From the IMG/VR virus record IMGVR_UViG_2541047948_000009: a stretch of 45,296 bases of DNA. One strand, written 5' to 3'. Made by a program: the position numbers and the translations under genes. Source of the DNA: a virus. Its lineage: Duplodnaviria; Heunggongvirae; Uroviricota; Caudoviricetes. Positions 64-45,296 of this stretch are shown one piece after another (position 1 is the stretch's first letter; every line of letters starts with the position of its first letter). The notes beneath the pieces are model-generated. The model was given only the letters and a program-made list of their open reading frames with translations. It ran no database searches and was not told the origin of the DNA.

Positions 64-165
64 ATGCCGCTTACTCAAGAAGAAAGAATTATGACGTTGT
101 CTCCTTATTTGCAAGAGGTGGCGAAGCGCCGCACTTTTGCCATTATTTCTCACCCCAATAATTAA
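64..165 (+). CDS. Short ORF (33 codons) upstream of the integrase; possibly host-side or att-adjacent, function unknown
   Basis: ATG at 64 in frame to TAA at 163-165; below the ORF-track length cut-off; no recognisable similarity. Confidence 0.15.
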
Positions 166-385: not shown

Positions 386-1600
386 ATGGCGCTGTCTGAT
401 GCGTGGTTGCGTTCAGTCGTTGGAAAGGAACGTGATAAGGTTTTGGTTAAATCCGATCGTGATGGTCTGTCTGTCAGAGTATCACCGAAAGGTCGCGTAG
501 TGTTCCAATATCGTTATCAATGGGCAGGGAAAGGTGAGCGTCTTGATATCGGAACTTACCCGGCAACTGGATTAAAAGAGGCCAGAGAAGAAGTTATTCG
601 TCTCCGTGGTGAACTCGAGTCAAACCGTAATCCACGATTGGTCAAGCAGGCTGAAAAACGAAAAGCTACTGAAGCCATGACGGTAGAGTCTGTGATCCGT
701 GCCTGGTATGAAGCATATTGTGTAAAAAATAAAAAAGGTTCTGAACAGATACTCCGCTCGTTTGAGCTGCACCTGTTCTCTAAAATCGGGAATATCCCTC
801 ACGATGCAGCTACATTGCATGATTGGTTAGAAGTCCTGGAGCCTCTTAGCACTAAGACTCCAGCAATAGCAGACCGATTGCTAATTAACGCAAAGCAGGC
901 CCATGTCTGGGCGTATAAGAGAAAGCTCATTGAAACTCGCCCGCTGTCGGATATCACGGGTAAAGATATGGATATCCGTAAAGGTCAGAAGAAACGGTTT
1001 CTGACACATGATGAAATTAAAATCCTTTATGCTGCGATCGATGGTTCTCGAATGGTTCCTAAATACCGGGCCTTCATTAAACTATTGCTTCATTTTGGTT
1101 GCCGTAGTTCAGAGCTAATTACCGCCAGGGTGGACGATTTTGATTTCATTAATAAAGTATGGACTGTACCACCAGAACGACATAAGACTGGGGAGATAAC
1201 AGGCGAACCGCTAAAGCGGCCCATTATTGAACCGGTTGAAGAGCTTATAAAGTACGCTATTTCTATGAACAATGGTTCCGATATGCTTTTTACTAAGGAA
1301 GGAAGCAGGGAACCCGTTGGTCGGACATCATTGCAGTCGCTGCCTTACAATTTAATGCAGTATGCATGGCGGCGTTTGGGTTATCAATTCCCTCATTGGT
1401 CTCTTCATGATTTGAGGCGAACAGCACGAACAAACTTTTCTGATCTTACTGCGCCTCATATTGCAGAAATTATGCTAGGTCATAAACTGCCAGGGGTATG
1501 GCAAGTTTATGACAAGAGCGATTATCTAGAAGAACAGCGTAAAGCCTACCAAGCGTGGTGGGAGAGGGTTGAATCGATCGTTACTTGTACTGGTTCATAA
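386..1600 (+). CDS. int: Tyrosine site-specific integrase (P4-type, N-terminal DUF4102-like arm-binding region)
   Basis: 404 aa ORF; C-terminal catalytic region with R..HxxR..Y-like motifs (HDLRRTARTNF, LGHKLPGVWQVYDKSDY); terminal position in a prophage. Confidence 0.9.
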   Translation: MALSDAWLRSVVGKERDKVLVKSDRDGLSVRVSPKGRVVFQYRYQWAGKGERLDIGTYPATGLKEAREEVIRLRGELESNRNPRLVKQAEKRKATEAMTVESVIRAWYEAYCVKNKKGSEQILRSFELHLFSKIGNIPHDAATLHDWLEVLEPLSTKTPAIADRLLINAKQAHVWAYKRKLIETRPLSDITGKDMDIRKGQKKRFLTHDEIKILYAAIDGSRMVPKYRAFIKLLLHFGCRSSELITARVDDFDFINKVWTVPPERHKTGEITGEPLKRPIIEPVEELIKYAISMNNGSDMLFTKEGSREPVGRTSLQSLPYNLMQYAWRRLGYQFPHWSLHDLRRTARTNFSDLTAPHIAEIMLGHKLPGVWQVYDKSDYLEEQRKAYQAWWERVESIVTCTGS

Positions 1601-1975
1601 TCGAAATGATATTTTGCATATCTAGTACGCAATAAAATATGACAGTCCGCTTTGAGCTGCGGACATTGCTAGCAGCATTTTCTGTGAGGTAACGGGAGGT
1701 TGTTCAATATTGCCTCTGAAAAGGATAACCATTCAATTCTTCATTGAAAAAACTCATCGAAGATTTTATGGAGGGATGCAATTTATTTTGAGCGAATTTA
1801 ATTCATCACTAATGATCCTACATAGTTATTGCCTTGCTCACTAAAAGGTGAGATTTCATTAGCTCACCAACAATAATTAAATAGGATCATTAGCACTTTA
1901 TATCAGGCTATAATTTTAATAAATTACGTTATTTAAAGCCATTTTCTCCATCAAGTAATATCTTCATGCTAATGT

Positions 1976-2992
1976 TCACTTTTGTTTTAGCTTTATAATT
2001 TCTGATATCATAGTTGTTAGCTTTGAATCGGAAAGATTCTGCAGTCTATCTTTCTCAATAGAAACTGTAGTTTGTCCCTTTTCTAATATGAAATTTCTTT
2101 CTGTTTTCATTAAAAGCATTGCCAACTCTTTTATCATGTCTTCGTTCTTGAATTCTTGAGCATATTTTAGAGACATGACTTTCATCTCAATATTTGTGAT
2201 TTCATTCTGAAAATATTTGATTTCGTCAAACCCATTTTTATAGAGGCGTAGAAAAAAATAAGCAAACAATTCAACGACTATTACAAATGATAATTTAGGA
2301 AGGTGATGAATAAAAAATCCCACCCCATCCACAATGTCTGGCGCGCTGTAAAGAAAGTAAGCAAGAGATAATATCCCTGTCAACGCAATTATTGTTCCGA
2401 TTGCAAGGTTAAGCCCACCTCGTCGATTGAGTCTGTCTATTTCAGACTCTAATCTTAGAACCATATCAGTATGGAGTTTATGTAAGCTGTAGCTCTTCTT
2501 AAAATCAGATATATCGCTTTTTAGGCTGTTATCTGCCAGAAGTATTGTGTTTCCAATTATTCTCTTTTTTGCATCGGATATTAACTTCTCCCTTTCACTC
2601 TCTGTTATTTCAATGGAAACTCCGGAAGATGTTCTATTTTCAATTTCGCTCAATTTTTTATTTAGCTTAACTATTTCTTTGTGAAAAATATATCTCGTGT
2701 TTTCAATATCTCTACCACCAATTCCTTTGTTTAAATAAGAAGTCATTATTGCGACAAAAGAACCAACAAAAACTAGGGCAGTTGCTGTAAATAAAATAAA
2801 CTCTTTCTTCTCGTTTATTAAATTTACTATTGATGATGATTCCAGTTGAATGTCTGAAAGCGAAGTTTTAAGCACAAAATTCATCACAGGTGAAACCATG
2901 ATTATGGCAACAACTATAATAAATCCATATTTTTTTATAATGTAAATAAGAAGACCAAATAAATCTTTCATTTTATCTTTTACCTGAAACAA
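1976..2992 (-). CDS. Hypothetical membrane protein with about four predicted TM helices and two coiled-coil segments; AT-rich cargo gene
   Basis: 338 aa ORF in a very AT-rich island between int and xis; hydrophobic stretches near residues 13-36, 65-86, 193-216 and 226-247, K/E-rich helical regions between. Confidence 0.6.
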   Translation of the reverse strand: MFQVKDKMKDLFGLLIYIIKKYGFIIVVAIIMVSPVMNFVLKTSLSDIQLESSSIVNLINEKKEFILFTATALVFVGSFVAIMTSYLNKGIGGRDIENTRYIFHKEIVKLNKKLSEIENRTSSGVSIEITESEREKLISDAKKRIIGNTILLADNSLKSDISDFKKSYSLHKLHTDMVLRLESEIDRLNRRGGLNLAIGTIIALTGILSLAYFLYSAPDIVDGVGFFIHHLPKLSFVIVVELFAYFFLRLYKNGFDEIKYFQNEITNIEMKVMSLKYAQEFKNEDMIKELAMLLMKTERNFILEKGQTTVSIEKDRLQNLSDSKLTTMISEIIKLKQK

Positions 2993-3344
2993 ATTTTTAT
3001 TAAAGTAACTTAAAAAATGATTGATTGCAAGATTTACTATTGCTGTTCATTTTAAATTACTATACCCCCCTATGCATACATATAATCCCATAGGGGAGAA
3101 GTTTATTAGTTAGTTAAGTTGAAGGCTATACCTACAATCTAATTCCCCTCCAACCTAACATGCACAAGCGTCAACCTATCGGTAGTGATAATTTTATGAG
3201 GATACGTATAAACAAGATTCTGAGTTGCTCCTATTCATTAAGACAATACATTTTGTAACTTCTGCTTTTGGCTCAGGGTGGGGTGTGAGATTAGGTTTGG
3301 CTCTGTGCCATAGATGTGTCAGTTCACATCTGAGCTAATACACA

Positions 3345-3539
3345 TTACTCAATCACTCCAGCAAACCTATATATCTTGTGTGACGCCCATTTATTTGGGC
3401 ATGATTTAATATCAGGATCTGGAAAATCAGGCCTGTATTTCTGGCCAGTTCTCCGGTTTACGCTGTTCCAGCGAAGAACTGTCGATACTGAAACGCCACA
3501 GAAGTCGGCGACTTGTTTAGTTGTCATTAAGTTGTTCAT
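3345..3539 (-). CDS. AlpA/Xis-like small DNA-binding protein (excisionase/regulator)
   Basis: 64 aa; motif TTKQVADFCGVSVSTVLRW typical of the AlpA/excisionase HTH family; last gene of the leftward operon, nearest int. Confidence 0.7.
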   Translation of the reverse strand: MNNLMTTKQVADFCGVSVSTVLRWNSVNRRTGQKYRPDFPDPDIKSCPNKWASHKIYRFAGVIE

Positions 3540-4159
3540 TACTTCACCTCCTGCGGCGGTTCCGGTAGCGGCATCCAGTGGGTTACTTTCGATGCCGGTT
3601 CTTCCATATCGTCAGTAACTGCCCACCATTTGTTTCTCGACCAATCGTAATACCCTTCGAAGGTATCGCACTCAGTCCAGCCGTAAGACTTCCCCCAACA
3701 CCAAACATACTGTTTATCGTTCGGCATTCGCTCACTACAGCTTATCCAACCATCCGGAGTTACCGGAGAGTTGCCCGACAGCTCGTTCAACTTGTAAGTC
3801 TGGCTTACAGGTTCGGCACCATGAAGCATGGCGGTGCGGCAGGAGTTCCAGCCTTCATCAAAGCCGACTATGCCATTATTTAAAGACGGAAGACCATCCG
3901 GCACCACCGACACTGGCTGAGCCATATATAGCGGCTGAACATACCAGCCCTTTGATAACCAACTGTCAGCAATGTTTTTGCTCCTGGTTATTGCCGGAAT
4001 ACCTAAGCCATTGTCTGAATGCAGCCACGCCAACGGCTCTGCTTCCAGTGATGCCAGAGCAATTTCATAAGCACGGCGCTCAACATTGTCTCGCACGTGC
4101 AGGCTGCCGATTCGTTCTTTGATTTCTTTAATCAGTTCCTTATCGGTGAAAGTGGTCAT
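3539..4159 (-). CDS. Phage early protein with C-terminal DUF551-like domain
   Basis: 206 aa; C-terminal W/C-rich motif (WISCSERMP...THWMPLPEPP); start overlaps the xis stop. Confidence 0.55.
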   Translation of the reverse strand: MTTFTDKELIKEIKERIGSLHVRDNVERRAYEIALASLEAEPLAWLHSDNGLGIPAITRSKNIADSWLSKGWYVQPLYMAQPVSVVPDGLPSLNNGIVGFDEGWNSCRTAMLHGAEPVSQTYKLNELSGNSPVTPDGWISCSERMPNDKQYVWCWGKSYGWTECDTFEGYYDWSRNKWWAVTDDMEEPASKVTHWMPLPEPPQEVK

Positions 4160-4521
4160 TATGCCCCAGCCTCCGGTGCTTTTGGCATTACTGCCCAGTG
4201 AGTGATATTGACGTTTTCAAGGTCCCCGACCTGAAATGTCCACTGCCATTCTCCGGTTTCTTTTTGTCCCCAGGTGTACCAGAGAGAACGCCAGCCAATC
4301 AGCCAGCCTTCTCCGTTAGTATCAAATAACAGAACACTTTCATTTGCTGGTGGAAGTTCAACTGACACTGGTATTACTTTGTTTTCCAGTGCCGCACATT
4401 TAGCTTCAAGCGCATCGAATTTACGTACCAGATACTCAGCATTTGTTTCATTCACTTTCAGATCTCGCGGTACACATTTCCCGCGAAGAAACCCTTCCAT
4501 TTCGAAAACATTCATGCGCAT
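4159..4521 (-). CDS. Phage early protein, DUF551-like (YfdS-like, 120 aa)
   Basis: 120 aa; C-terminal ITHWAVMPKAPE motif similar to the neighbouring DUF551 protein; overlapping start/stop in the operon. Confidence 0.5.
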   Translation of the reverse strand: MRMNVFEMEGFLRGKCVPRDLKVNETNAEYLVRKFDALEAKCAALENKVIPVSVELPPANESVLLFDTNGEGWLIGWRSLWYTWGQKETGEWQWTFQVGDLENVNITHWAVMPKAPEAGA

Positions 4522-5048
4522 TTGCGTAACTCCGATAACTCGTTAAAACGTTCCATAAACATCCCATAGGCATGGCCTGGCGACAGTGGAATAACTTTGA
4601 ACATCTCTGTTGCCGGGATACCTTCCAGTACAGGCCAGAAAGAGCCATCATCAAGCCCGAGATCGCGGCGTTCGGTTGCCAGCATGATGAGATCGGCATA
4701 TTTCACAGGCGTGCTCATAACCGGGGGTAACCCGTATTTCTCACGGATTACGGCGTCTATTTTTTCTTCCATCCGTTTATAGTCAGGAAGAAGGCGTTTC
4801 AGTGGCGCGGGGATGTCCTGGCAATACGCTTCTGTTGCATCATGCATTAACGCTTCAAAAGCAAATTCCTGCGGCACCAGCTGGCTGCAAAGCACCGCAT
4901 GCTGGGCGACGCTGTAGAAGTGTGAAAGATGTCCTGCAAAGCGACAGATATTTGAAAGGGAAACCGCGATATCGTTAATCACGATGTCGTCTTTATTTAT
5001 CCTGTCATAATAAAAATGCTTCCCGGAAAAAGTTTTAATAAATGACAT
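4512..5048 (-). CDS. HD-domain phosphohydrolase (YfdR-like 5'-deoxynucleotidase family)
   Basis: H..HD metal-binding motifs (SVAQHAV, LMHDATEAY); start placed at the internal ATG (5046-5048) with GGAGA 5 nt upstream, giving 178 aa. Confidence 0.65.
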   Translation of the reverse strand: MSFIKTFSGKHFYYDRINKDDIVINDIAVSLSNICRFAGHLSHFYSVAQHAVLCSQLVPQEFAFEALMHDATEAYCQDIPAPLKRLLPDYKRMEEKIDAVIREKYGLPPVMSTPVKYADLIMLATERRDLGLDDGSFWPVLEGIPATEMFKVIPLSPGHAYGMFMERFNELSELRKCA

Positions 5049-14847: not shown

Positions 14848-15129
14848 CTTTAGATAGGGTAATAGAGATGTTGAATCTCATTCCGGGATTCATGTTTGTT
14901 TACTTATTATTTATCGGGTGACTTTGCCTGATGTTTAAAATGTTTTCTTCCAGTACTATGTCCCTAGATACAATGAGTCTGCATATTACATTATTAGCAG
15001 AGCTATTACGGTCAAAGTACAGCGTAAGCTTTTAAAGCCAATCAACCAGTCATCAAGACAGACGGGGTTATTCATGAAAACTCTCCATGTTTGATTCGAT
15101 GGGGCCTGAAATTAAAGCTTTAATATAGC

Positions 15130-15342
15130 TCATGAAAGGTAAACATTGGCAGCTGAAGGGCCACGCAGACCATTTATCCGGCAAAATTCCACGCGTAATC
15201 CGGTGGTAATTTCTTCTGCATCGCGGAGATTGAGCGCTGAAACATGAAGCTGGACATCGATACGACCATCGGATGGGGTGATAAGACCCTTGCCGCTTTT
15301 GCCGTCAAAGGTTTTGACAATTCCTGTCATTTTACGGGACAA
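15130..15342 (-). CDS. Cold-shock-domain protein, CspF/CspH type
   Basis: 70 aa; [27 protein letters not shown]...[20 protein letters not shown] matches recalled CspF/CspH sequences. Confidence 0.8.
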
Positions 15343-15642
15343 AAAAATTCCTTAATACTGATAACTGGGCGCACTATACACACGTTCCTGAAGAAAGCTA
15401 TAGTTTTTTGATGGGGTTGAAGATGGCTGGATGTCTAAAATAAACATTGCTTCATATGTTCAACTATGCGTTAATGATTGCGTCGGTTTGAAGAACAGAC
15501 GATATACGAAGTAGTTTACTAAAGCAGTTCTCATTTCAGGTGTTATTCACTTATTCCTTCTTTGAGTCTCTCCAATTAAGTACGAAGTCGTTTCTGTTAT
15601 ACAAGCCATTTATGCCGAAAGGCTCAAGTTAAGGAATGTAGA

Positions 15643-15858
15643 ATGTCAAATAAAATGACTGGTTTAGTAAAATGGTTTAACGCTGATAAAGGTTTTGGCT
15701 TTATTTCTCCTGTTGATGGTAGTAAAGATGTGTTTGTGCATTTTTCTGCGATTCAGAATGATAATTTTCGAACCTTATTTGAAGGTCAAAAGGTTACCTT
15801 CTCTGTAGAGAGTGGTGCTAAAGGTCCTGCAGCAGCAAATGTCATAATTACTGATTAA
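15643..15858 (+). CDS. cspB: Cold-shock protein CspB-like
   Basis: 71 aa; [38 protein letters not shown] with RNP1/RNP2 motifs; long AT-rich 5' UTR typical of csp genes. Confidence 0.85.
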
Positions 15859-16140
15859 AATTCATAGTTTGTCTGTATACGATAACGAAGAAGGCTGATG
15901 CCTGAGTGGAGATACAGACAGAGTGGTGAATATTGGATCTCTTTAATAAATAGTAAGGAGGTCCAATACATGAAACAATGGCCAGCATATTTGGCAATAA
16001 CTTAATCAGGAAAAGTATGCTAACCATTGTGGTGAAGTGCAGGTTTGCTGCATGAATAGTTTTACAGCAGAAGCTAACTGCTGGCATAGCAAAACAAAGT
16101 GCGTAAGTGGATGACTCCCACAAAAAGTACCACAATATTA

Positions 16141-16166
16141 AACCCGCTCAGGCGGGTTTTTTATTA
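16141..16166 (+). terminator. Intrinsic terminator
   Basis: AAACCCGC-tcag-GCGGGTTT followed by TTTTATT. Confidence 0.5.
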
Positions 16167-16221
16167 TCTGCTTTAAATATGTTATTAAAATATAAAAAAT
16201 ACTTGTTACGAATAAAATCAA

Positions 16222-16392
16222 TCAAGCTACAGCTTTAAGATTTGTCTGGAATACTTTGTTGCAATGAGGGCAGATCAAAAGGGCACCTTTTTGTACTCTT
16301 GAAAAACTGTGTTCTGACTCTTGGGTGCAGTTTGGGCAGGAACATTTAACGAGATAATTACGGCGTGATTTTGAGTCTTTACGTTCTGACAT
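16222..16392 (-). CDS. Small zinc-ribbon protein (YnfU-like)
   Basis: Start at the internal ATG 16390-16392 (AGGAAAA RBS), 56 aa; CxCPxC ... CPHC arrangement. Confidence 0.45.
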   Translation of the reverse strand: MSERKDSKSRRNYLVKCSCPNCTQESEHSFSRVQKGALLICPHCNKVFQTNLKAVA

Positions 16393-16610
16393 AGGCTTTT
16401 CCTGTATAAATGGCCGTATACAGTACACTAAATATGAAAACATATCTCGTATTATTATTTAATATATGATTTTCTTTTAAAATAATTACCCACATTTTTA
16501 ATGTGTCTGTTTTTTAGCGCCGTTGAGAACAACGTTTGCTATAAAAACTAACCCATAGACTCCGATCTTTTCAAACATATTGCACCATCTGTGTACATCG
16601 GGGTGAGGAT

Positions 16611-16826
16611 ATGAAATCAATGGATAAGTTAACAACAGGTATCGCCTATGGCACATCGGCTGGTAATGCTGGTTTCTGGGCATTGCAGTTACTCGATAAA
16701 GTAACTCCGTCACAGTGGGCTGCAATCGGTGTGCTGGGTAGTCTGGTTTTTGGCCTGCTGACGTATCTGACAAACCTTTATTTCAAGATTAAAGAAGACA
16801 GGCGTAAGGTTGCGAGAAGAGAGTAA
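16611..16826 (+). CDS. Class II pinholin (phage 21 S21-like) with dual-start motif
   Basis: 71 aa; [26 protein letters not shown]...[15 protein letters not shown] closely matches the recalled S21 sequence; Met1/Met4 dual start. Confidence 0.85.
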
Positions 16827-16830
16827 TCCA

Positions 16831-17382
16831 ATGACACAAGACTATGAACTGGTTGTGAAAGGAGTCCGCAATTTTGAGAATAAAGTGGCGGTAACTGTAG
16901 CCTTACGGGACAAAAAACGCTTTGACGGTGAAATTTTTGACCTGGACATCTCGCTGGACCGTGTTGAAGGTGCCGCGCTGGAGTTTTATGAGGCAGCAGC
17001 CAGAATGAGAATCAGACAGGTATTCCTGGATGTTGCTGCCGGGTTATGTGTAGGGGATGAGCAGTCGCCGGAAAAGCGCCCCATAATTTTAGAGGCGCAG
17101 AATGTGTGGATAACCTACAAAGGAAAGCTACCGGGAAGAATTACTGGTTCTCTGAAGACGCCACCGACGGCATTGCGGTCAGAAAAAGATGATATTGAAT
17201 CGCCCATTGAAAAACTGGAGGGCAGCGTCGCTGATCTGAATAAAAAATTGTCGGTGCTGATCCCTTCTGAAGATGAAAAAAAACGCCGCGATGAGCAGTT
17301 TGCGGCGTTTTACGATTATTGCATTGAAGTTACTCGCAGGAATTTTGTGAAGATTTTTGAGGAGGGTAAATCTCTTCAGTAA
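16831..17382 (+). CDS. Hypothetical protein inserted between holin and endolysin
   Basis: ORF in late-operon orientation; start placed at ATG 16831 (track start 16810); charged, helical composition; no recognised family. Confidence 0.45.
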   Translation: MTQDYELVVKGVRNFENKVAVTVALRDKKRFDGEIFDLDISLDRVEGAALEFYEAAARMRIRQVFLDVAAGLCVGDEQSPEKRPIILEAQNVWITYKGKLPGRITGSLKTPPTALRSEKDDIESPIEKLEGSVADLNKKLSVLIPSEDEKKRRDEQFAAFYDYCIEVTRRNFVKIFEEGKSLQ

Positions 17383-17590
17383 GCTTAATGGCGGACGCTG
17401 CAATTAATTCAGGAAGGTCCGCAAGGTCATCTGTCAGTGGATATGATGAAAAATCGGCGGCAGTTCTGTTAAGAAGCGCTTTAACTAATTCCTTTTCCTT
17501 CTCCGGCAACAAGTTGATTAGAGCTACGACTGCTTGCCTGAGTGCGATTAAATCAGCAAAAGTTTGTTTTGGTAGATTTGTGTAATCCAT
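17330..17590 (-). CDS. Hypothetical acidic protein, convergent with and overlapping the 3' end of the preceding gene
   Basis: 86 aa from ATG 17588-17590 with AGAGGTG RBS; protein-like composition; 53-nt 3' overlap with 16831..17382. Confidence 0.4.
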   Translation of the reverse strand: MDYTNLPKQTFADLIALRQAVVALINLLPEKEKELVKALLNRTAADFSSYPLTDDLADLPELIAASAIKLTEEIYPPQKSSQNSCE

Positions 17591-17703
17591 AGTCACCTCT
17601 GTGTTTATCAGATTGACATCCTCCTCCCGCCAGTGCCCATCACTGGTGAGGTAAGATTTAACATATCCGGGGATTTGAAGCCGATAAATCCTGATAAATA
17701 TCC

Positions 17704-18731
<1,028 letters not shown>

Positions 18732-19091
18732 ATTAATATTAAATCGGATTATTTTTAGCGCTGAATGTGAAATTTAAATAAAAAGGACTCTTCCATGAGT
18801 CAAAATCCTTGAAATCTTAAGGGTAAGATAAAAGGTCATTAGACAGAATGACACGTTTTATTAATAAATAAAGCTATTGTTTCATTCGTGTGTTTTTCTT
18901 TACAAAAGTAATCCTTGCTATGGTTGGTTAATCATGCGTTAATGGTGTTCTGGTTTGTTACAAAATTATCTGAAGCAGTCATTGTTATAATTTTATTATT
19001 TGTACCTCTTGAGATTTCCTTGTTGGTTTTTCTCTCTGATATTTTTTTTCGGACCATTCTGCCCAAGGGCTAACTTCTTCAAAAGGTAATA

Positions 19092-19307
19092 ATGATGTCT
19101 AACAAAATGACTGGTTTAGTGAAATGGTTTAACCCTGAAAAAGGTTTTGGTTTCATCACGCCGAAAGATGGTAGCAAAGATGTGTTTGTGCATTTCTCAG
19201 CTATTCAGAGCAACGATTTCAAAACGTTAACTGAGAATCAGGAAGTCGAATTTGGTATTGAGAACGGACCTAAAGGCCCTGCAGCTGTTCATGTAGTGGC
19301 ACTTTGA
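19092..19307 (+). CDS. cspI: Cold-shock protein CspI-like
   Basis: [70 protein letters not shown] matches the recalled CspI sequence. Confidence 0.85.
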
Positions 19308-19512
19308 GGTAGAAAATATTACAAACCATATTCACTTTAGATGCCCGTGTTGCCATGGTTCTCAGTATAGAACATCATCTTTTGATGTTTCTGACAGAAA
19401 TCCTTTCGGGGCAAAATGTATCTTTTGTAAATCAATGATGATTACATTTGATAATATTTCACAATACTTAAATGTTAGCCATCTGTCGTTAGATTTAAGA
19501 AAGTGAAAATGA

Positions 19513-19536
19513 AGGCTCCTTCGGGAGCTTTTTTGC
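19513..19536 (+). terminator. Intrinsic terminator
   Basis: GGCTCC-ttcg-GGAGCT followed by TTTTTTG. Confidence 0.5.
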
Positions 19537-19616
19537 TTAGTGTCTAGTCGATGGATACTCACATATTACGGTAACATTATGAAAAAAATAATAGTTTTTT
19601 TAACTCTGAACCAGCA

Positions 19617-19808
19617 ATGGTAGTGCCAGTGATGACCGGAGTTAACACCATCATGCGTGAATATCCAAATGGCGAAACAACACACCTCACTGTAATGGCT
19701 GCAGGGTTTCCATCTCTGACCGGAGATCATAAAGTCATTTATGTAGCAGCGGATCGACATGTAACTTCAGAAGAAATTCTGGAAGCAGCAATGAGACTCT
19801 TGAATTGA
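19617..19808 (+). CDS. Hypothetical small protein
   Basis: 63 aa ORF with plausible composition; no clear RBS. Confidence 0.25.
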   Translation: MVVPVMTGVNTIMREYPNGETTHLTVMAAGFPSLTGDHKVIYVAADRHVTSEEILEAAMRLLN

Positions 19809-19980
19809 TTTGATTCTAATGCATTGATAATAAATGATAATCATCTTTATCTGTTTGTGTGAAATTTAGACCGTCGTATGTTGATTATTGCGATGTTTCA
19901 TCTTATCTTTTATACGTTTGCTCCATATAATTGACACTACTGTGTACCAGGACAGTCATAACAGACTAAAAGAGGAAATG

Positions 19981-20154
19981 ATGAACATTGAAGAGTTAAA
20001 AACAAAAACAGAAGCAGATATTTCTGAATATATAACAAAAAAAATCATTGAGCTTAAGAAAAAGACCGGGAAAGAAGTTACCAGTATCCAGTTTACTGCA
20101 CGGGAAAAAATGACTGGTCTTGAAAGCTATGATATCAAGATTGATTTAATCTAG
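19981..20154 (+). CDS. gnsB: GnsA/GnsB-family small protein
   Basis: Start at second ATG (AAAGAGGA RBS), 57 aa; MNIEELKTKTEADISEYITKKIIELKKKTGKEVTSIQFTAREKMTGLESYDIKIDLI resembles recalled GnsB. Confidence 0.6.
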   Translation: MNIEELKTKTEADISEYITKKIIELKKKTGKEVTSIQFTAREKMTGLESYDIKIDLI

Positions 20155-40240: not shown

Positions 40241-40250
40241 TGGAGTGGAT

Positions 40251-42629
40251 ATGGCAGCAGTAAAAATCTCAGGTGTGCTGAAAGATGGTGCGGGAAAACC
40301 AATACAGAACTGCACTATTCAACTGAAGGCAAAGCGTAACAGCACCACGGTACTGGTGAACACGGTGGCCTCTGAAAATCCGGATGAAGCCGGGCGTTAC
40401 AGCATGGATGTTGAGTATGGTCAGTACAGCGTCACCCTGCTGGTTGAAGGTTTTCCGCCTTCACATGCCGGGACCATTACCGTCTATGAAGGTTCCAGAC
40501 CAGGTACGCTGAATGATTTTCTCGGTGCCATGACGGAAGATGATGTCATGCCGGAGGCATTGCGTCGTTTTGAGGCAATGGTGGAAGAAGCGGCACGCAA
40601 CGCCGAAGCCGCCTCTCAGAGCGCAGCAGCGGCAAAGAAATCCGAAACTGCAGCGGCATCATCGAAGAACGCGGCGAAAACCTCAGAAACAAATGCAGCT
40701 AACAGCGCACAGGCGGCAGCGTCCTCGCAGACTGCATCGGCAAACTCCGCGACAGCAGCCAAAAAATCAGAAACCAACGCGAAAAATAGCGAGACAGCCG
40801 CAAAGACGAGCGAAACCAACGCAAAGTCCAGCCAGACGGCAGCGAAAACAAGCGAAACGAATGCCAAAGCCAGTGAAACTGCGGCAAAAAACAGCCAGGT
40901 TGCAGCAGCCCAAAGCGCGAGCGCGGCAGCCGGTTCTGCGACTTCAGCAGCTGGATCAGCAACTGCTGCGGCTAACAGCCAGAAAGCTGCGAAGACGAGT
41001 GAAACTAACGCAAAGTCCAGCCAGACGGCAGCGAAGACCAGCGAAACGAATGCCAAAGCCAGCGAAACTGCGGCGAAAAACAGTCAGGATGCAGCAGCCC
41101 AAAGCGAGAGTGCTGCAGCTGGTTCTGCAAGCGCGGCGGCTGCTTCTGCCACTGCATCAGCCAACAGTCAAAAAGCAGCAAAAACCAGTGAAACCAATGC
41201 AAAGACAAGCGAGACTGCAGCGGCGAACTCGGCGAAAGCATCCGCTGCAAGCCAGACCGCTGCAAAAGCAAGTGAAGACGCAGCCAGAGAGTATGCAAGC
41301 CAGGCAGCAGATCCGTATAAATATGTCTTACAGCCGCTGCCTGATGTGTGGATACCGTTTAACGATTCACTGGATATGATTACGGGCTTTTTGCCATCAT
41401 ATAAAAAGATTGTTATTGGTGACGACGAAATAACGATGCCTGGCGACAAGATTGTTAAGTTTAAACGTGCATCGAAAGCAACCTATATTAACAAATCTGG
41501 TGTGCTGACAGAGGCTGCCATTGATGAGCCACGATTTGAACGTGATGGCCTGCTTATTGAGGGGCAAAGAACTAATCTTCTGCTTAATTCAACAAATCCA
41601 TCTAAATGGAATAAGTCAGGCAATCTGGAACTCACAGAAATATCCACGGATTCTTTTAATTTTACTTATGGGAGATTTACTGTAAAAGATACTCTTATTG
41701 GTCAGACAAGTGCTATTAATATCGTAACGATTTCTGGCAGTAAAGGGTTTGATGTCACAGGTGATGAAAAATATGTGACCATTTCATGCCGTGTAAGAAG
41801 TGATGTTGAAAATATAAGGTGTCGTTTAAGATTTGAACACCATGATGGTTATACTTACACTTTTTTGGGAGATGCTTACCTCAATTTATCAACACTTGTA
41901 ATTGATAAAACTGGTACTGCTGCAGACCGTATTATTGCAAAGGCTGTAAAAGATGAGGTTACTGGTTGGATTTTCTATCAGGCTACAATTAATGCACTAG
42001 ATACAGAGAGCATGATTGGTGCGATGGTTCAATACGCTCCTGTAAAAGGTTCAGGTACAGCATCTGGAGACTATCTGGATATCGCAACTCCACAAGTGGA
42101 AGGTGGATCAAGTGCTTCGTCATTTATTGTAACTGATATAACTGCAAGCACTCGCGCAAGCGATATGGTGACAGTCCCAATCAAGAATAACCTTTATAAT
42201 CTTCCTTTTACGGTTCTTTGTGAGGTACATAAGAACTGGTATAAAACGCCAAATGCAGCACCGCGTGTTTTTGATACCGGCGGTCATCAAACCGGAGCGG
42301 CTATTATTCTTGGCTTCGGTCGTTCAACAGATTACGACGGATTTCCTTATTGTGATATAGGTTTGGCTAACAGACGGGTAAACGAAAACGCATCGCTTGA
42401 AAAAATGGTTATGGGGATGCGTGTAAAGTCAGATCAGTCTACGTGCTCAGTAAGTAACGGGCGTATATCCAGCGAAAAGAAAGCCACATGGTCCTATATT
42501 CAGAACTCCGCAATTATCCGTATTGGAGGCCAGACTACAGCCGGGTTGCGTCATTTATTTGGTCATGTCAGGAATTTCAGAATATGGCACAAGGCATTGA
42601 CTGATGCTCAGATGGGGGAGTCAATCTAA
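40251..42629 (+). CDS. stf: Side tail fibre protein (lambda Stf-like N-terminus, repetitive Ala/Ser/Thr shaft, divergent AT-rich C-terminal receptor-binding domain)
   Basis: N-terminus MAAVKISGVLKDGAGKPIQNCTIQLKAKRNSTT matches recalled lambda Stf; AAKTSETNAK-type repeats; C-terminal about 430 aa are AT-rich and end with a LamG/ConA-like motif (GHVRNFRIWHKALTDAQMGE). Confidence 0.85.
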   Translation: MAAVKISGVLKDGAGKPIQNCTIQLKAKRNSTTVLVNTVASENPDEAGRYSMDVEYGQYSVTLLVEGFPPSHAGTITVYEGSRPGTLNDFLGAMTEDDVMPEALRRFEAMVEEAARNAEAASQSAAAAKKSETAAASSKNAAKTSETNAANSAQAAASSQTASANSATAAKKSETNAKNSETAAKTSETNAKSSQTAAKTSETNAKASETAAKNSQVAAAQSASAAAGSATSAAGSATAAANSQKAAKTSETNAKSSQTAAKTSETNAKASETAAKNSQDAAAQSESAAAGSASAAAASATASANSQKAAKTSETNAKTSETAAANSAKASAASQTAAKASEDAAREYASQAADPYKYVLQPLPDVWIPFNDSLDMITGFLPSYKKIVIGDDEITMPGDKIVKFKRASKATYINKSGVLTEAAIDEPRFERDGLLIEGQRTNLLLNSTNPSKWNKSGNLELTEISTDSFNFTYGRFTVKDTLIGQTSAINIVTISGSKGFDVTGDEKYVTISCRVRSDVENIRCRLRFEHHDGYTYTFLGDAYLNLSTLVIDKTGTAADRIIAKAVKDEVTGWIFYQATINALDTESMIGAMVQYAPVKGSGTASGDYLDIATPQVEGGSSASSFIVTDITASTRASDMVTVPIKNNLYNLPFTVLCEVHKNWYKTPNAAPRVFDTGGHQTGAAIILGFGRSTDYDGFPYCDIGLANRRVNENASLEKMVMGMRVKSDQSTCSVSNGRISSEKKATWSYIQNSAIIRIGGQTTAGLRHLFGHVRNFRIWHKALTDAQMGESI
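40801..41178. repeat. Two near-identical tandem copies of an about 189-bp unit inside the stf shaft-coding region
   Basis: Units starting near 40801 and 40990 are about 90% identical at nucleotide level; encoded AAKTSETNAKSSQTAAKTSETNAKASETAAKNSQ repeated. Confidence 0.6.
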
Positions 42630-42910
42630 TGAAAGATTTAACACTCAAATTTGCAGACAGGGCCGACTTTTCGGCCTTTATGGATAGCATTGGCTATTAT
42701 GATGACGAGTCGATGCAGGATGATATTCTTATTGACGTGATAGGTAACGTGTACAAAGAAACCGGAGAACTGACTGAAGATGGCGAACCGGTATGTGTTA
42801 AGGAAGATGGATATTTTGTAAACGTGCGCATCATTAATGATGCAAAAAAATCGTTAATATTCGATGAATACGCGGTTGTAGTTGAACATCAACTTCGTGG
42901 CTGGATGTGA
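42629..42910 (+). CDS. Hypothetical acidic protein translationally coupled to stf (possible fibre chaperone or accessory)
   Basis: 93 aa; TAATG overlap with the stf stop; AT-rich like the stf C-terminal domain. Confidence 0.45.
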   Translation: MKDLTLKFADRADFSAFMDSIGYYDDESMQDDILIDVIGNVYKETGELTEDGEPVCVKEDGYFVNVRIINDAKKSLIFDEYAVVVEHQLRGWM

Positions 42911-42919
42911 GGGAGACAA

Positions 42920-43624
42920 ATGGCTACATCGACAGTAATTCCAGGAGACATCACCACGTTAAAGGGAGATGTCAGTAAAGCCAAGGAAGATATTTCCTCA
43001 ATTAACGGAAAAGTATCAACGCTTCAGGCTGATATGACCAGTGCAAAGCAGGATATCAGCACCAGATACACAAAAACTGAAGTTGATAATAAGCTGAAAA
43101 ACAAACTGGAAGTGAACGCTCTGGAAAGCGGTCGTTATGGTGGAGATTTTTACCCGTTGACTGGCCGTGAAGCGTTTTATTTGTGGGGATTGGGCACGAC
43201 TACAGCGGCGGCAAACCTTTATCTTAATCCTGACCCCGCAATTTCGTCTGTGCTGCGGTCAACATCGTCTATCCGCTATAAACATTCAGTAGAGACAATA
43301 GATTCAGAGCACGCCGATCTCATTTTCAGGATGCGCCCTGTGTGGTACAGGTCACAATGCGAAAATGACAGGCGTGACTGGGGATTCTACGGATTGATTG
43401 CCGAGGAAGTAGGAGAAATTGCCCCTCAGTTTGTACACTGGCGACCAGCTAACGAAGATGATGCACCGGAAGCTATTTCCAGCAATGGCCTTGTTGCCGA
43501 AGGTGTAATGTACGAACGTCTGGTTGTTCCACTGATTCACCATATCCAGAAGCTGACTGAAAGAGTTGATGAACTTGAGTCAGAATTAAAGTTGTTATCC
43601 GTTTCCCGAAGCGATATCGGATAA
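42920..43624 (+). CDS. Short fibre-like protein with C-terminal intramolecular chaperone (peptidase S74-like) domain
   Basis: 234 aa; N-terminal heptad-like repeats; C-terminal DRRDWGFYGLIAEEVGEIAPQFV...GLVAEGVMYERLVVPLIHHIQKL...DELE resembles the autoproteolytic chaperone domain of phage fibres and spikes (memory-based). Confidence 0.45.
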   Translation: MATSTVIPGDITTLKGDVSKAKEDISSINGKVSTLQADMTSAKQDISTRYTKTEVDNKLKNKLEVNALESGRYGGDFYPLTGREAFYLWGLGTTTAAANLYLNPDPAISSVLRSTSSIRYKHSVETIDSEHADLIFRMRPVWYRSQCENDRRDWGFYGLIAEEVGEIAPQFVHWRPANEDDAPEAISSNGLVAEGVMYERLVVPLIHHIQKLTERVDELESELKLLSVSRSDIG

Positions 43625-43634
43625 AGGAGGAGTA

Positions 43635-43928
43635 ATGGATATAACACCTTTCCTTCATGCGCTTTGTGCTGTGGCTGCGCAGCTACTGATTGGTCTTTTT
43701 ACCGGGAACTGGGCTTACGGGGCGATAGCTGGTTGTACGTTCTTCATTGCGCGTGAACACACCCAGGCAGAATATCGCTGGATTGAAATGTTCGGGCATG
43801 GCAAGCGAATGAATATGCCGTGGTGGGGCGGTTTTGATCCGCGCGCGTGGGATGTGGCAAGCCTGATGGATTTTGCTGTGCCGGTGGTGGCGTGTCTGCT
43901 GGTCTGGCTGTTGGTTAATCGTGGGTGA
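43635..43928 (+). CDS. Small integral membrane protein (2-3 predicted TM helices), candidate receptor-masking or superinfection-exclusion factor
   Basis: 97 aa; hydrophobic segments FLHALCAVAAQLLIGLF and VASLMDFAVPVVACLLVWLLV; AGGAGG RBS. Confidence 0.45.
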   Translation: MDITPFLHALCAVAAQLLIGLFTGNWAYGAIAGCTFFIAREHTQAEYRWIEMFGHGKRMNMPWWGGFDPRAWDVASLMDFAVPVVACLLVWLLVNRG

Positions 43929-43938
43929 AAAAAGGTGA

Positions 43939-44058
43939 GCTGTATATGCAACGGAGGAAGAAACCTCGTTGCTGGAAGCCTGGAAGAAGTATCGGGTGTT
44001 GCTGAACCGTGTTGATACGTCAACTGCACAGGATATTGAATGGCCAGCACTGCCGTAG
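43939..44058 (+). pseudogene. 3' remnant of a tail-fibre assembly gene (tfa)
   Basis: Frame encodes ...[36 protein letters not shown], matching the recalled lambda Tfa C-terminus; no start codon or upstream tfa body; the frame opens just after a stop at 43936-43938. Confidence 0.6.
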
Positions 44059-44155
44059 GGTAAAACATATAAATTCTATAATTAGATGTATCTTTCCATT
44101 TACGGCAAGGAAGGGGGCTTGGAAGACGTAAAGCATCTCACACCGAGATTATTTT

Positions 44156-44746
44156 TTATATGTCAGGTGTCTGAAGTTTTGCTTTGGCTCTTAAAATGGT
44201 TTGCCGCGAGGTTTTGAATTCCCGGGCAATGGCACTTATACTTACACCTGACTTAATTCGTTCGAATACCACCTGTTTCTGTTCTTCATTTAACACAGGT
44301 GGTCGACCAAAACGTTTCCCTGCGCCGCGGGCTCTTACTATCCCGGAATGAGTGCGTTCAAGTAAAAGGTCTCGTTCAAATTCAGCGACTGCTGAAATTA
44401 CGTGCATCATCATTTTTCCTGTTGGACTGGTCAGGTCAATGCCCCCCAATGCTAAGCAATGCACTCTGATACCTGTTTCGGTCAGTTGTTCCACTGTTTT
44501 CCTGATATCCATTGCATTACAACCAAGGCGATCCAGTTTTGTCACAATCAATTGATCACCACATTTCAGGCGAGCAAGCAACCGGTTAAAACCAGGACGC
44601 TCACTGGTTGCTGCTGAGCCGCTAATGTGTTCTTCGATTATTTGCTGAGGTTTGATTTTAAAACCTGCACTTTCGATTTCCCGGCGTTGATTTTCGGTGG
44701 TCTGATCCAGCGTTGATATCCGACAGTAAGCAAAAATTCGAGACAT
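44156..44746 (-). CDS. Serine recombinase, DNA invertase (Pin/Gin/Hin family)
   Basis: 196 aa; N-terminal catalytic motif YCRISTLDQ (active-site Ser), resolvase core, C-terminal HTH; adjacent to tail-fibre genes. Confidence 0.9.
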
Positions 44747-45062
44747 AGTGAGACTCTATACGAAATTGGTGTTCATATCATAATGCATCTCAGAAAATAA
44801 TTTTGATTATTTTTGTGCATATTTGTATGTACACGTTCGAAAATAAACGAATGCGTATGCAACCCCGTAACTTTGGTGAGACCCAAAATCGATTTTGTGA
44901 AAAATGGCTTTAACTCGGTTTGTTTTTCGAGTTCCGGGCGGACTCAAGGAAGAAGAATAGTGTTGCGTGTTATTTTAACCAGATTTCAAGTTGTTTGGTC
45001 GTGGAAAAGTGGAGCAAAATGTTGTTAAAGTGGAAAAATGATAAAAAAGTAAGTTTATTATA

Positions 45063-45296
45063 TTACATTTTACCATTTAAATTTTGGTTGTCTTTAAGAA
45101 CTGATATCGCTGTTTGTAATAATTCTTTGTTATCCAGCCATGACTTTTTCTTTATGTTTCCTTCAATGTAATCAAGCAATGTTCTGGTATTGATAGGTCT
45201 TCCCTGTTTTGCTACTTCCACGACAGCATCTCCCAGGATAATTCTGACTTCAGGAAGCTGCGCAGGGAACCACTTTAGGGTGTCTTTTGATTTCAT
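45063..45296 (-). CDS. ydfK: YdfK/YnaE-like small prophage protein
   Basis: 77 aa beginning at the window edge; MKSKDTLKWFPAQLPEVRIILGDAVVEVAKQGRPINTRTLLDYIEGNIKK... matches recalled YdfK/YnaE. Confidence 0.65.
   Translation of the reverse strand: MKSKDTLKWFPAQLPEVRIILGDAVVEVAKQGRPINTRTLLDYIEGNIKKKSWLDNKELLQTAISVLKDNQNLNGKM

Follow-up and report, generated by a model that had tools for sequence, protein, structure and literature searches.

The stretch of DNA analyzed here (IMG/VR virus record IMGVR_UViG_2541047948_000009; 45,296 nucleotides [nt]; from here on, the window) is identical in sequence to positions 4953267-4998562 of the Escherichia coli S88 chromosome and contains a complete lambdoid prophage of ~45 kb that is integrated between yjjG and prfC in E. 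coli S88, UTI89, and APEC O1. We focused on a minus-strand gene located between the integrase gene (int) and the probable excisionase gene (xis) of this prophage, which codes for a 331-amino acid (aa) inner-membrane protein with four transmembrane (TM) helices. As detailed below, we consider the chances about even that this protein acts at the membrane as a new single-gene factor for phage defence or exclusion.

The gene order of the prophage is int, leftward early operon (DUF551, yfdS/R/Q/P), cI-like and Cro-like repressors, and replication genes, after which come Q, the lysis cassette, and structural genes of HK97 type. UTI89, NU14, APEC O1, F11, and further strains of extraintestinal pathogenic E. 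coli (ExPEC) carry near-identical copies. The interval from int to xis contains the features listed below. For conservation in the flanks of the gene, three alleles were compared, i.e., that of S88, an 84%-identical allele from the same slot, and a 73%-identical allele from a different prophage (L106).

386-1600, plus strand: tyrosine integrase with matches to Phage_integrase, Arm-DNA-bind_3, and Phage_int_M of Pfam; it borders the hotspot on the left.
1644-3275, minus strand: mobile cargo cassette of ~1.63 kb with ~32% GC, comprising the gene, a 304-bp 5' flank, and a 332-bp 3' flank.
1645-1664, minus strand: terminator-like hairpin (GTCCGC...GCGGAC, T-rich tail) marking the cassette's 3' edge; the stem is kept and the loop differs in the 73% allele.
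1809-1893, no strand assigned: inverted repeat in the 3' flank with 23-nt arms that are 87% complementary and a 39-nt spacer; the arms are kept in all three alleles.
1976-2971, minus strand: coding sequence of the 331-aa four-TM protein (WP_000653746.1; PHROG 5157), based on RefSeq, PHROG, homologues, and the ratio of nonsynonymous to synonymous substitution rates (dN/dS).
2972-2992, minus strand: seven extra codons if a TTG start is used, probably 5' untranslated region, as PHROG and RefSeq start at the ATG.
3000-3028, minus strand: candidate sigma-70 promoter read from the sequence (TTGCAA, 17-nt spacer, TACTTT), ending ~28 nt before the ATG.
3345-3539, minus strand: probable excisionase of 64 aa, HTH_17/MerR-like, not annotated by RefSeq in S88; it borders the hotspot on the right.

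The HTH_17 open reading frame (ORF) at 3345-3539 lies directly downstream of the DUF551 gene. A stretch homologous to it carries the label "excisionase" in phage 2H10, and sibling prophage records have an annotated helix-turn-helix protein at the equivalent position. It is probably the xis gene of the prophage.

The gene has a GC content of 31.6% and lies in an AT-rich island (1601-3344; 32.6% GC) in a window with 49% GC overall, and it is oriented as the leftward early genes (DUF551, yfdS/R/Q/P); the first-pass annotation of this DNA had described the location between int and xis, the base composition, and the orientation in the same way. It had also described a 338-aa gene, of which the gene stands and the length does not. 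The longer ORF (1976-2992, minus strand) starts at a TTG and comprises 338 aa, and RefSeq annotates 1976-2971 as WP_000653746.1, "hypothetical protein." Because PHROG 5157 and the RefSeq protein both begin at the ATG at 2971, and because this ATG, unlike the TTG, is kept in diverged alleles (the TTG is not conserved in the 73% allele), translation almost certainly starts at this ATG and yields a protein of 331 aa. The chance of 338 open codons at a composition of 32% GC is about 3e-13, and none of 2,000 shuffles contained an open frame of more than 159 codons, versus 356 observed. The gene is real rather than a chance ORF and, as described below, is under purifying selection.

Among the databases searched, PHROG 5157 is the sole named family that includes the protein (E = 2.7e-226, full-length, with residues 8-338 of the TTG ORF aligned to positions 1-331 of the 331-position profile). 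No function is assigned to this PHROG, and membership in it therefore explains nothing functional. Searches of Pfam, NCBIfam, PADLOC, and the PDB sequences gave no significant match, in agreement with the earlier statement that the protein belongs to no recognized named family. Homologues are abundant: we obtained 1,080 matches in the database clustered at 90% identity and 2,812 among representatives at 50% identity, of which 1,523 had E<1e-30 and nearly all were 300-370 aa long. They derive from Gamma-, Beta-, Alpha-, and Epsilonproteobacteria, Bacteroidota, Acidobacteriota, Planctomycetota, Nitrospirota, Verrucomicrobiota, and Desulfobacterota and include soil and marine bacteria as well as bacteria known from metagenome-assembled genomes (MAGs). 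A tblastn search of 50,697 deposited phage genomes gave no match, and a search of plasmids gave only seven, all distant and partial. By sequence comparison, the family is unnamed and unrelated to known effectors, while single-gene integrase-proximal cargo is well known as a kind. We also looked for WP_000653746 in the DefensePredictor supplement (PMC13092281) and did not find it in the accessible portion of that file, in which a nearby accession, WP_000653385, denotes a helicase-like protein with no relation to ours.

Hydropathy analysis identified four hydrophobic segments at aa 16-34, 58-76, 186-207, and 224-243. Lysine and arginine residues (K+R), counted across 137 family members, number 5.8 at the N-terminus, ~20 in the central region, and ~13 at the C-terminus, whereas loop 1 has 1.5 and loop 3 has 0.6. 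Based on this distribution, both termini are in the cytoplasm, and so is nearly all of the soluble mass. An AlphaFold model made with the 137-sequence alignment (predicted local distance difference test score [pLDDT], 85; predicted template modeling score, 0.68) is all-helical. Two of its helices, aa 124-208 and 216-274, are very long and extend out of the cytoplasm through TM3 and TM4; an additional helix lies at aa 89-113. These analyses support the two TM pairs and the helices of the first-pass annotation, which had proposed an N-terminal and a second TM pair, each followed by a coiled coil; the long helices are candidates for such coiled coils. The protein can be divided into four parts.

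2744-2926, minus strand: fast-evolving N-terminal module consisting of TM1 (aa 16-34), a short periplasmic loop, and TM2 (aa 58-76), based on hydropathy and dN/dS.
2417-2743, minus strand: K+R-rich cytoplasmic helical region, aa 77-185, based on AlphaFold and invariant columns.
2243-2416, minus strand: conserved TM3-loop-TM4 hairpin, aa 186-243, based on invariant and near-invariant alignment columns.
1979-2242, minus strand: conserved cytoplasmic C-terminal helices, aa 244-331, based on alignment columns and a pLDDT of 90-97.

Conservation is distributed unevenly over these four parts. Within the family, conservation is highest in TM4 (top-residue frequency of 0.80; 66% identity to the S88 protein), followed by the 30 residues after TM4 and by TM3, whereas TM1, loop 1, and TM2 have just 10-13% family identity to the S88 protein. 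The central cytoplasmic region closes with the pre-TM3 motif R173-L-x-x-E177 ... R-R184-G185-x-N188-L189, in which R173, E177, R184, G185, N188, and L189 are invariant or near-invariant. TM3 has a face of small residues (G192, A196, and G199), of which G192 and G199 fall in the same class. In TM4, P225 precedes E234, which is nearly invariant and sits mid-membrane, and an FAYFFL motif; the invariant or near-invariant positions here are P225, R226, E234, F236-L241, L243, and Y244. After TM4, they are K252, Y253-F-Q-N256-E257, T259, N260, T290-E-R292-N293, Q300, and T302. The C-terminal helices contain two motifs, LYK-x4-E-x-KYFQNE-x-TN-x-E and TERNF-x-L-x-KGQ-x-T. Fully invariant in the C-terminal region are Y244, K252, N256, E257, R292, N293, and T302.

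The same division was evident when we compared the S88 allele with the 84%-identical allele. The dN/dS was 0.82 for aa 1-40 and 0.085 for aa 121-331, supporting that the core is strongly constrained, while the N-terminal module is diversifying or under relaxed selection. By analogy, a conserved core joined to a diversifying N-terminus would fit the usual pattern of a sensor-plus-effector defence protein.

The gene is part of a mobile unit. In sibling prophages with other cargo, nucleotide homology to the window ends at 1591-1661 and restarts at 3252-3295. Moreover, the 73%-identical allele in L106 is located not in the int-xis slot but at the tail-fibre/invertase end of a different prophage, beside an invertase equivalent to 44155-44745 of the window, and there the nucleotide identity of 74% spans exactly 1644-3275. 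Because the breakpoints and the region of identity in L106 coincide with 1644-3275, we conclude that the cassette moves as a unit together with its own flanks. The promoter-like box is kept in the 84% and 73% alleles, in which the −10 element is TATTTT, and the terminator-like hairpin at 1645-1664 is likewise shared by all three alleles. The inverted repeat at 1809-1893 is conserved although the proteins are only 73-84% identical, and it contains a small terminator-like stem at 1837-1852; it may serve as an RNA element or a binding site for a protein, or it may be a scar left by recombination. An Rfam scan of 1500-3600 gave no match. An upstream ORF of 16 codons was considered as a leader peptide and rejected because it is not conserved in the 73% allele. 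As read from the sequence, the anatomy of the cassette resembles that of a moron with its own putative promoter and terminator.

The slot that holds the cassette in S88 is variable. Of 5,426 complete E. coli genomes, 699 (~13%) carry the integrase but only 71 the cargo gene; among the latter, 51 carry near-identical copies, ~14 carry copies with 80-90% identity, and 6 carry more distant copies. We sampled 14 sibling prophages integrated at the yjjG/prfC site and inspected their interval from int to xis/DUF551. The cargo in this interval includes a CHAT protein matching Borvo BovA (E = 1.3e-241), an AIPR protein matching AbiU (E = 3.7e-111), and, by RefSeq annotation, Dsr1 and a dGTPase-family protein. 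DUF4365 proteins were found twice. The remaining cargo is uncharacterized and consists of proteins of 413 aa (twice), 515 aa, 271 aa, and 239 aa (twice) and of two two-gene sets. Validated defence systems thus account for 4 of roughly 10 cargo types. Because conserved int and xis genes flank exchanged cargo and the integrase is found in 699 genomes versus 71 for the gene, the slot qualifies as a genuine variable hotspot and, across the yjjG/prfC lambdoid prophages, as one rich in defence genes. We interpret our gene as the payload of an autonomous moron-type cassette in this hotspot.

Five of the other cargo loci (L092:5295-6536, L093:5282-6829, L097:4765-5580, L099:4896-5615, and L095:5211-6187) gave no PADLOC match, and L115:4198-5354, which lay outside the PADLOC scan, contains further uncharacterized slot cargo. 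All of these are additional defence candidates.

In its setting, the cassette resembles cargo genes that occur singly in the defence hotspots of prophages and satellites such as P2 and P4 (Rousset et al. 2022; PMC9122126): a variable slot lies between conserved int and xis genes, and the cargo is AT-rich, self-contained, and swapped among siblings. In contrast to Borvo BovA, AbiU, Dsr1, and the dGTPase in the sibling slots, to which it has no sequence or fold relation, the protein is a membrane protein without an enzymatic domain.

To describe the neighbourhoods of homologues, we used 79 loci from different species of many phyla, in which we called 1,468 neighbouring ORFs that group into 1,273 clusters. 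No neighbour cluster recurred at positions −4 to +4. Based on this observation, the gene is stand-alone and has no obligate partner; a multigene system was rejected for the same reason. Domain scans covered the 287 neighbours that lie within ±3 genes and are at least 130 aa long; we regarded PADLOC matches with E<1e-10 as strong. Strong matches were to Old/AriA/GajA, NsnB, LmuB, MADS mad2/mad3, a SIR2 Argonaute partner, and a type I methyltransferase, as well as to the candidate families PDC-S15/S20/S35/S66 and PDC-M30B/M34A/M41B. Pfam domains among the neighbours include integrases, transposases, NACHT, SLFN/AlbA_2, WYL, and KAP. As a rough reading of counts made per family rather than per neighbour and without a matched control, approximately one-tenth of the neighbours are defence-like, which is believed to exceed the typical genome-wide fraction.

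Individual loci are in line with a location in mobile or defence-associated DNA. In a Citrobacter prophage, the homologue adjoins AbiJ; in Kosakonia, a homologue lies outside the int gene of another lambdoid prophage; and in Pseudomonas and Kosakonia, homologues lie within small islands with integrases or insertion sequences. In Vreelandella venusta (L002:4293-7062), the distant homologue P0108 is located 160 bp downstream of the Kiwa genes kwaA-kwaB on the same strand, beside an integrase fragment. The adjacency to Kiwa was not recurrent in the 79 loci, and it may reflect coincidental clustering in an island or a functional association. Altogether, the suggestion in the first-pass annotation that the gene is integrase-proximal defence or exclusion cargo receives strong contextual support from BovA, AbiU, Dsr1, and the dGTPase in the slot, from Kiwa and AbiJ beside homologues, and from its stand-alone nature. 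Its suggestion of a membrane-disrupting abortive infection (Abi) or SieB-like mechanism found no such backing, and no homology of the protein to known Abi, superinfection exclusion (Sie), or CBASS effectors was found.

We favour the interpretation that the protein is a phage-triggered depolarizing effector that acts by abortive infection or exclusion. The TM hairpin with a buried glutamate, the small-residue face of TM3, and the flanking invariant polar motifs suggest an ion-conducting or proton-binding oligomer with a cytoplasmic gate rather than a mere anchor. Likewise, the N-terminal module is a plausible sensor because it is fast-evolving and faces the envelope. In the mechanism that we propose, the lysogen would produce the protein from the gene's own promoter, and the protein would oligomerize through its long helices. 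The TM3-TM4 hairpins could then place a ring of membrane-buried E234 residues so as to form a gated cation or proton path, for which the membrane-proximal cytoplasmic motifs would serve as the gate. The module of TM1, periplasmic loop, and TM2 would sense an infection cue at the envelope, and opening of the path would collapse the membrane potential, such that the incoming phage is aborted or excluded.

More tentatively, and with clearly less confidence than we place in the gene as an anti-phage candidate, the entire family may represent phylum-spanning one-protein immune channels, each combining a diversifying envelope sensor with a gated pore and working without a partner or second messenger. 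It is similarly conjectural that the pore of such channels would be composed of the TM3-TM4 glutamate ring and a cytoplasmic collar containing the KYFQNE and TERNF motifs, and that the family is unrelated, or only anciently related, to the MotA/ExbB stators.

Several observations count against a depolarizing defence effector. The protein has no significant similarity to validated defence proteins, its best PADLOC match being a "2TM effector" (PDLC00707; E = 0.0075; 13.5 bits) that covers residues 18-166 only and is matched by 1 of 137 family members. Fold searches gave only generic helical hairpins. A sigma-70 consensus scan upstream of the gene flagged no strong site, and the promoter match is weak. 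A literature search for the accession, the PHROG identifier, MotA-like single-gene defence, and a prfC hotspot returned no relevant record, and hence none that names the accession or PHROG 5157. The arguments from the hotspot and the neighbourhoods amount to guilt by association, and several cargo genes in the slot are themselves uncharacterized; in addition, many neighbours of distant homologues are ordinary housekeeping or metabolic genes. Finally, the argument for channel formation is built on one conserved buried glutamate and on analogy.

In its build, the protein resembles small polytopic inner-membrane proteins, i.e., lambda RexB, the 2TM effectors of CBASS/SLATT type, Pycsar PycTM, and Kiwa KwaA, which are similarly encoded in prophages or defence islands and are presumed to depolarize the membrane. 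The likeness to the CBASS/SLATT effectors extends to an N-terminal TM pair with following helices, as reflected in the weak PADLOC match; SLATT-type matches in BFVD were nonsignificant. However, all of these proteins need a separate partner that senses or makes a signal (RexA, a cyclase, or KwaB), while our gene is always solitary, and the similarities are nonsignificant. We found no nucleotide cyclase of CBASS type among the neighbours at homologue loci and neither a RexA-type second gene in the cassette nor a conserved neighbour, a search that did not include a direct sequence comparison with RexB. For ZorA and KwaA, PADLOC gave no match to the protein at E≤10, and their partner genes (ZorB-D and KwaB) are not present in the window; ZorA and KwaA were also absent among the first 25 of the 45 PADLOC families listed for the 137 members.

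The most serious competitor to this interpretation, albeit an unlikely one, is nonabortive superinfection exclusion, in which the protein would block genome injection or transit through the inner membrane and the cell would survive. P22 SieA, T4 Imm, and HK97 gp15 are models for such a function. A prophage-encoded inner-membrane protein in a slot presumably expressed by lysogens would fit this explanation, and so would the finding that the sole periplasm-exposed parts (TM1, loop 1, and TM2) evolve fastest, as expected at a contact with the injection machinery. Nevertheless, the protein has no similarity to known Sie proteins in PHROGs or PADLOC, and conservation peaks in TM4, where the glutamate is buried, and in the cytoplasmic motifs, in a family that spans phyla and includes many members in nonprophage islands. 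The conserved TM4 and cytoplasmic motifs and the phylum-wide spread argue for a generic effector over a lock-and-key block of injection.

Cargo with a role outside phage defence, such as an ExPEC fitness or virulence trait, a prophage-stabilizing toxin, or an accessory to the phage life cycle, has a smaller probability in our view. AT-rich morons can carry virulence factors, the identical allele is concentrated in ExPEC (S88, UTI89, NU14, APEC O1, and F11), and many neighbours of distant homologues are nondefence genes. However, the prophage has a complete lysis cassette of its own, the slot is dispensable and swapped for known defence genes in siblings, and no antitoxin-like partner is conserved. 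Moreover, ExPEC-type virulence makes no sense for members from soil, marine, and MAG bacteria of many phyla.

We regard it as improbable that the protein is a divergent orphan of the MotA/ExbB/TolQ stator proteins (PF01618, which includes Zorya ZorA), acting as an unplugged proton channel or as a poison of TolQR/ExbBD that blocks the entry of Tol- and Ton-dependent phages and colicins. The resemblance is architectural: in both cases, the protein is polytopic, a large cytoplasmic insert precedes the conserved TM hairpin, the last TM helix contains an acidic residue, and the TM helices are long and reach into the cytoplasm. Two homologues bear UniRef names of MotA/ExbB/TolQ type, and 11 of 137 family members have weak matches to PF01618 (best E = 0.004). 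In contrast to MotA, ExbB, TolQ, and ZorA, the gene lacks a partner of the MotB/ExbD/TolR/ZorB type and soluble partners of the ZorC/ZorD type. A MotB/ExbD/TolR-type single-TM partner was neither found in the window nor recurrent in the 79 loci. The protein itself has no match to PF01618 at E≤1, and hhalign of the family alignment gave a probability of 0.6% against E. coli TolQ and of 2.4% against TolQ plus Bacteroidota ExbB; the comparison profile was shallow because the homologue search with a Mucilaginibacter ExbB returned only relatives with at least 80% identity. Based on the missing PF01618 match, these hhalign values, and the lack of a partner gene, membership in this family was rejected.

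Lastly, the possibility of a nonfunctional chance ORF or decaying remnant in AT-rich DNA, to which the "hypothetical protein" label and the weak promoter match might point, is refuted by the ~3e-13 chance of the ORF, the dN/dS of 0.085, and thousands of full-length homologues with invariant motifs.

Overall, the gene is a solid and testable candidate for a new single-gene phage-defence protein rather than a surprise. If the cassette protects, the family would be a widespread single-gene membrane defence family with >2,800 clusters at 50% identity that is missed by Pfam, NCBIfam, and PADLOC, and the 331-aa protein would provide a compact, partner-free model for how one membrane protein can both sense and execute a response. 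Natural alleles differ almost solely in the N-terminal module and are, therefore, ready-made material for specificity swaps. Carriage by model ExPEC strains (UTI89, S88, APEC O1, and NU14) is relevant to phage therapy against these strains.

Further observations concern the prophage and its siblings. Just outside int, a 69-nt fragment annotated as a pseudogene in RefSeq (91-159, plus strand) is present at every sibling locus and is likely the end of the target gene duplicated by integration (putative attL). In the leftward early operon, yfdR (4512-5048, minus strand), which encodes a 5'-deoxynucleotidase with an HD domain, is present in all sampled sibling prophages and could influence defences based on deoxynucleoside triphosphates, e.g., the dGTPase in the hotspot of one sibling. 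In some siblings, a PAPS-reductase-domain protein and a small hypothetical protein are found in this operon in place of DUF551/yfdS (L092:7357-8235 and L116:6357-7235); the replacement genes could represent a DNA-modification or anti-defence module. Between Q, the lysis genes, and the terminase (14984-20153), the window has an unusual cluster of cold-shock-family and small genes. Listed with it are cspF, cspB, cspI, ymcF, ynfN, ydfK (45062-45295), gnsB, and ynfU, and the cluster resembles the content of Qin-type cryptic prophages. The tail-fibre region (40250-44745) ends in a truncated tail-fibre assembly gene and an opposed serine recombinase gene (44155-44745), which suggests an invertible host-range segment that is possibly decayed.

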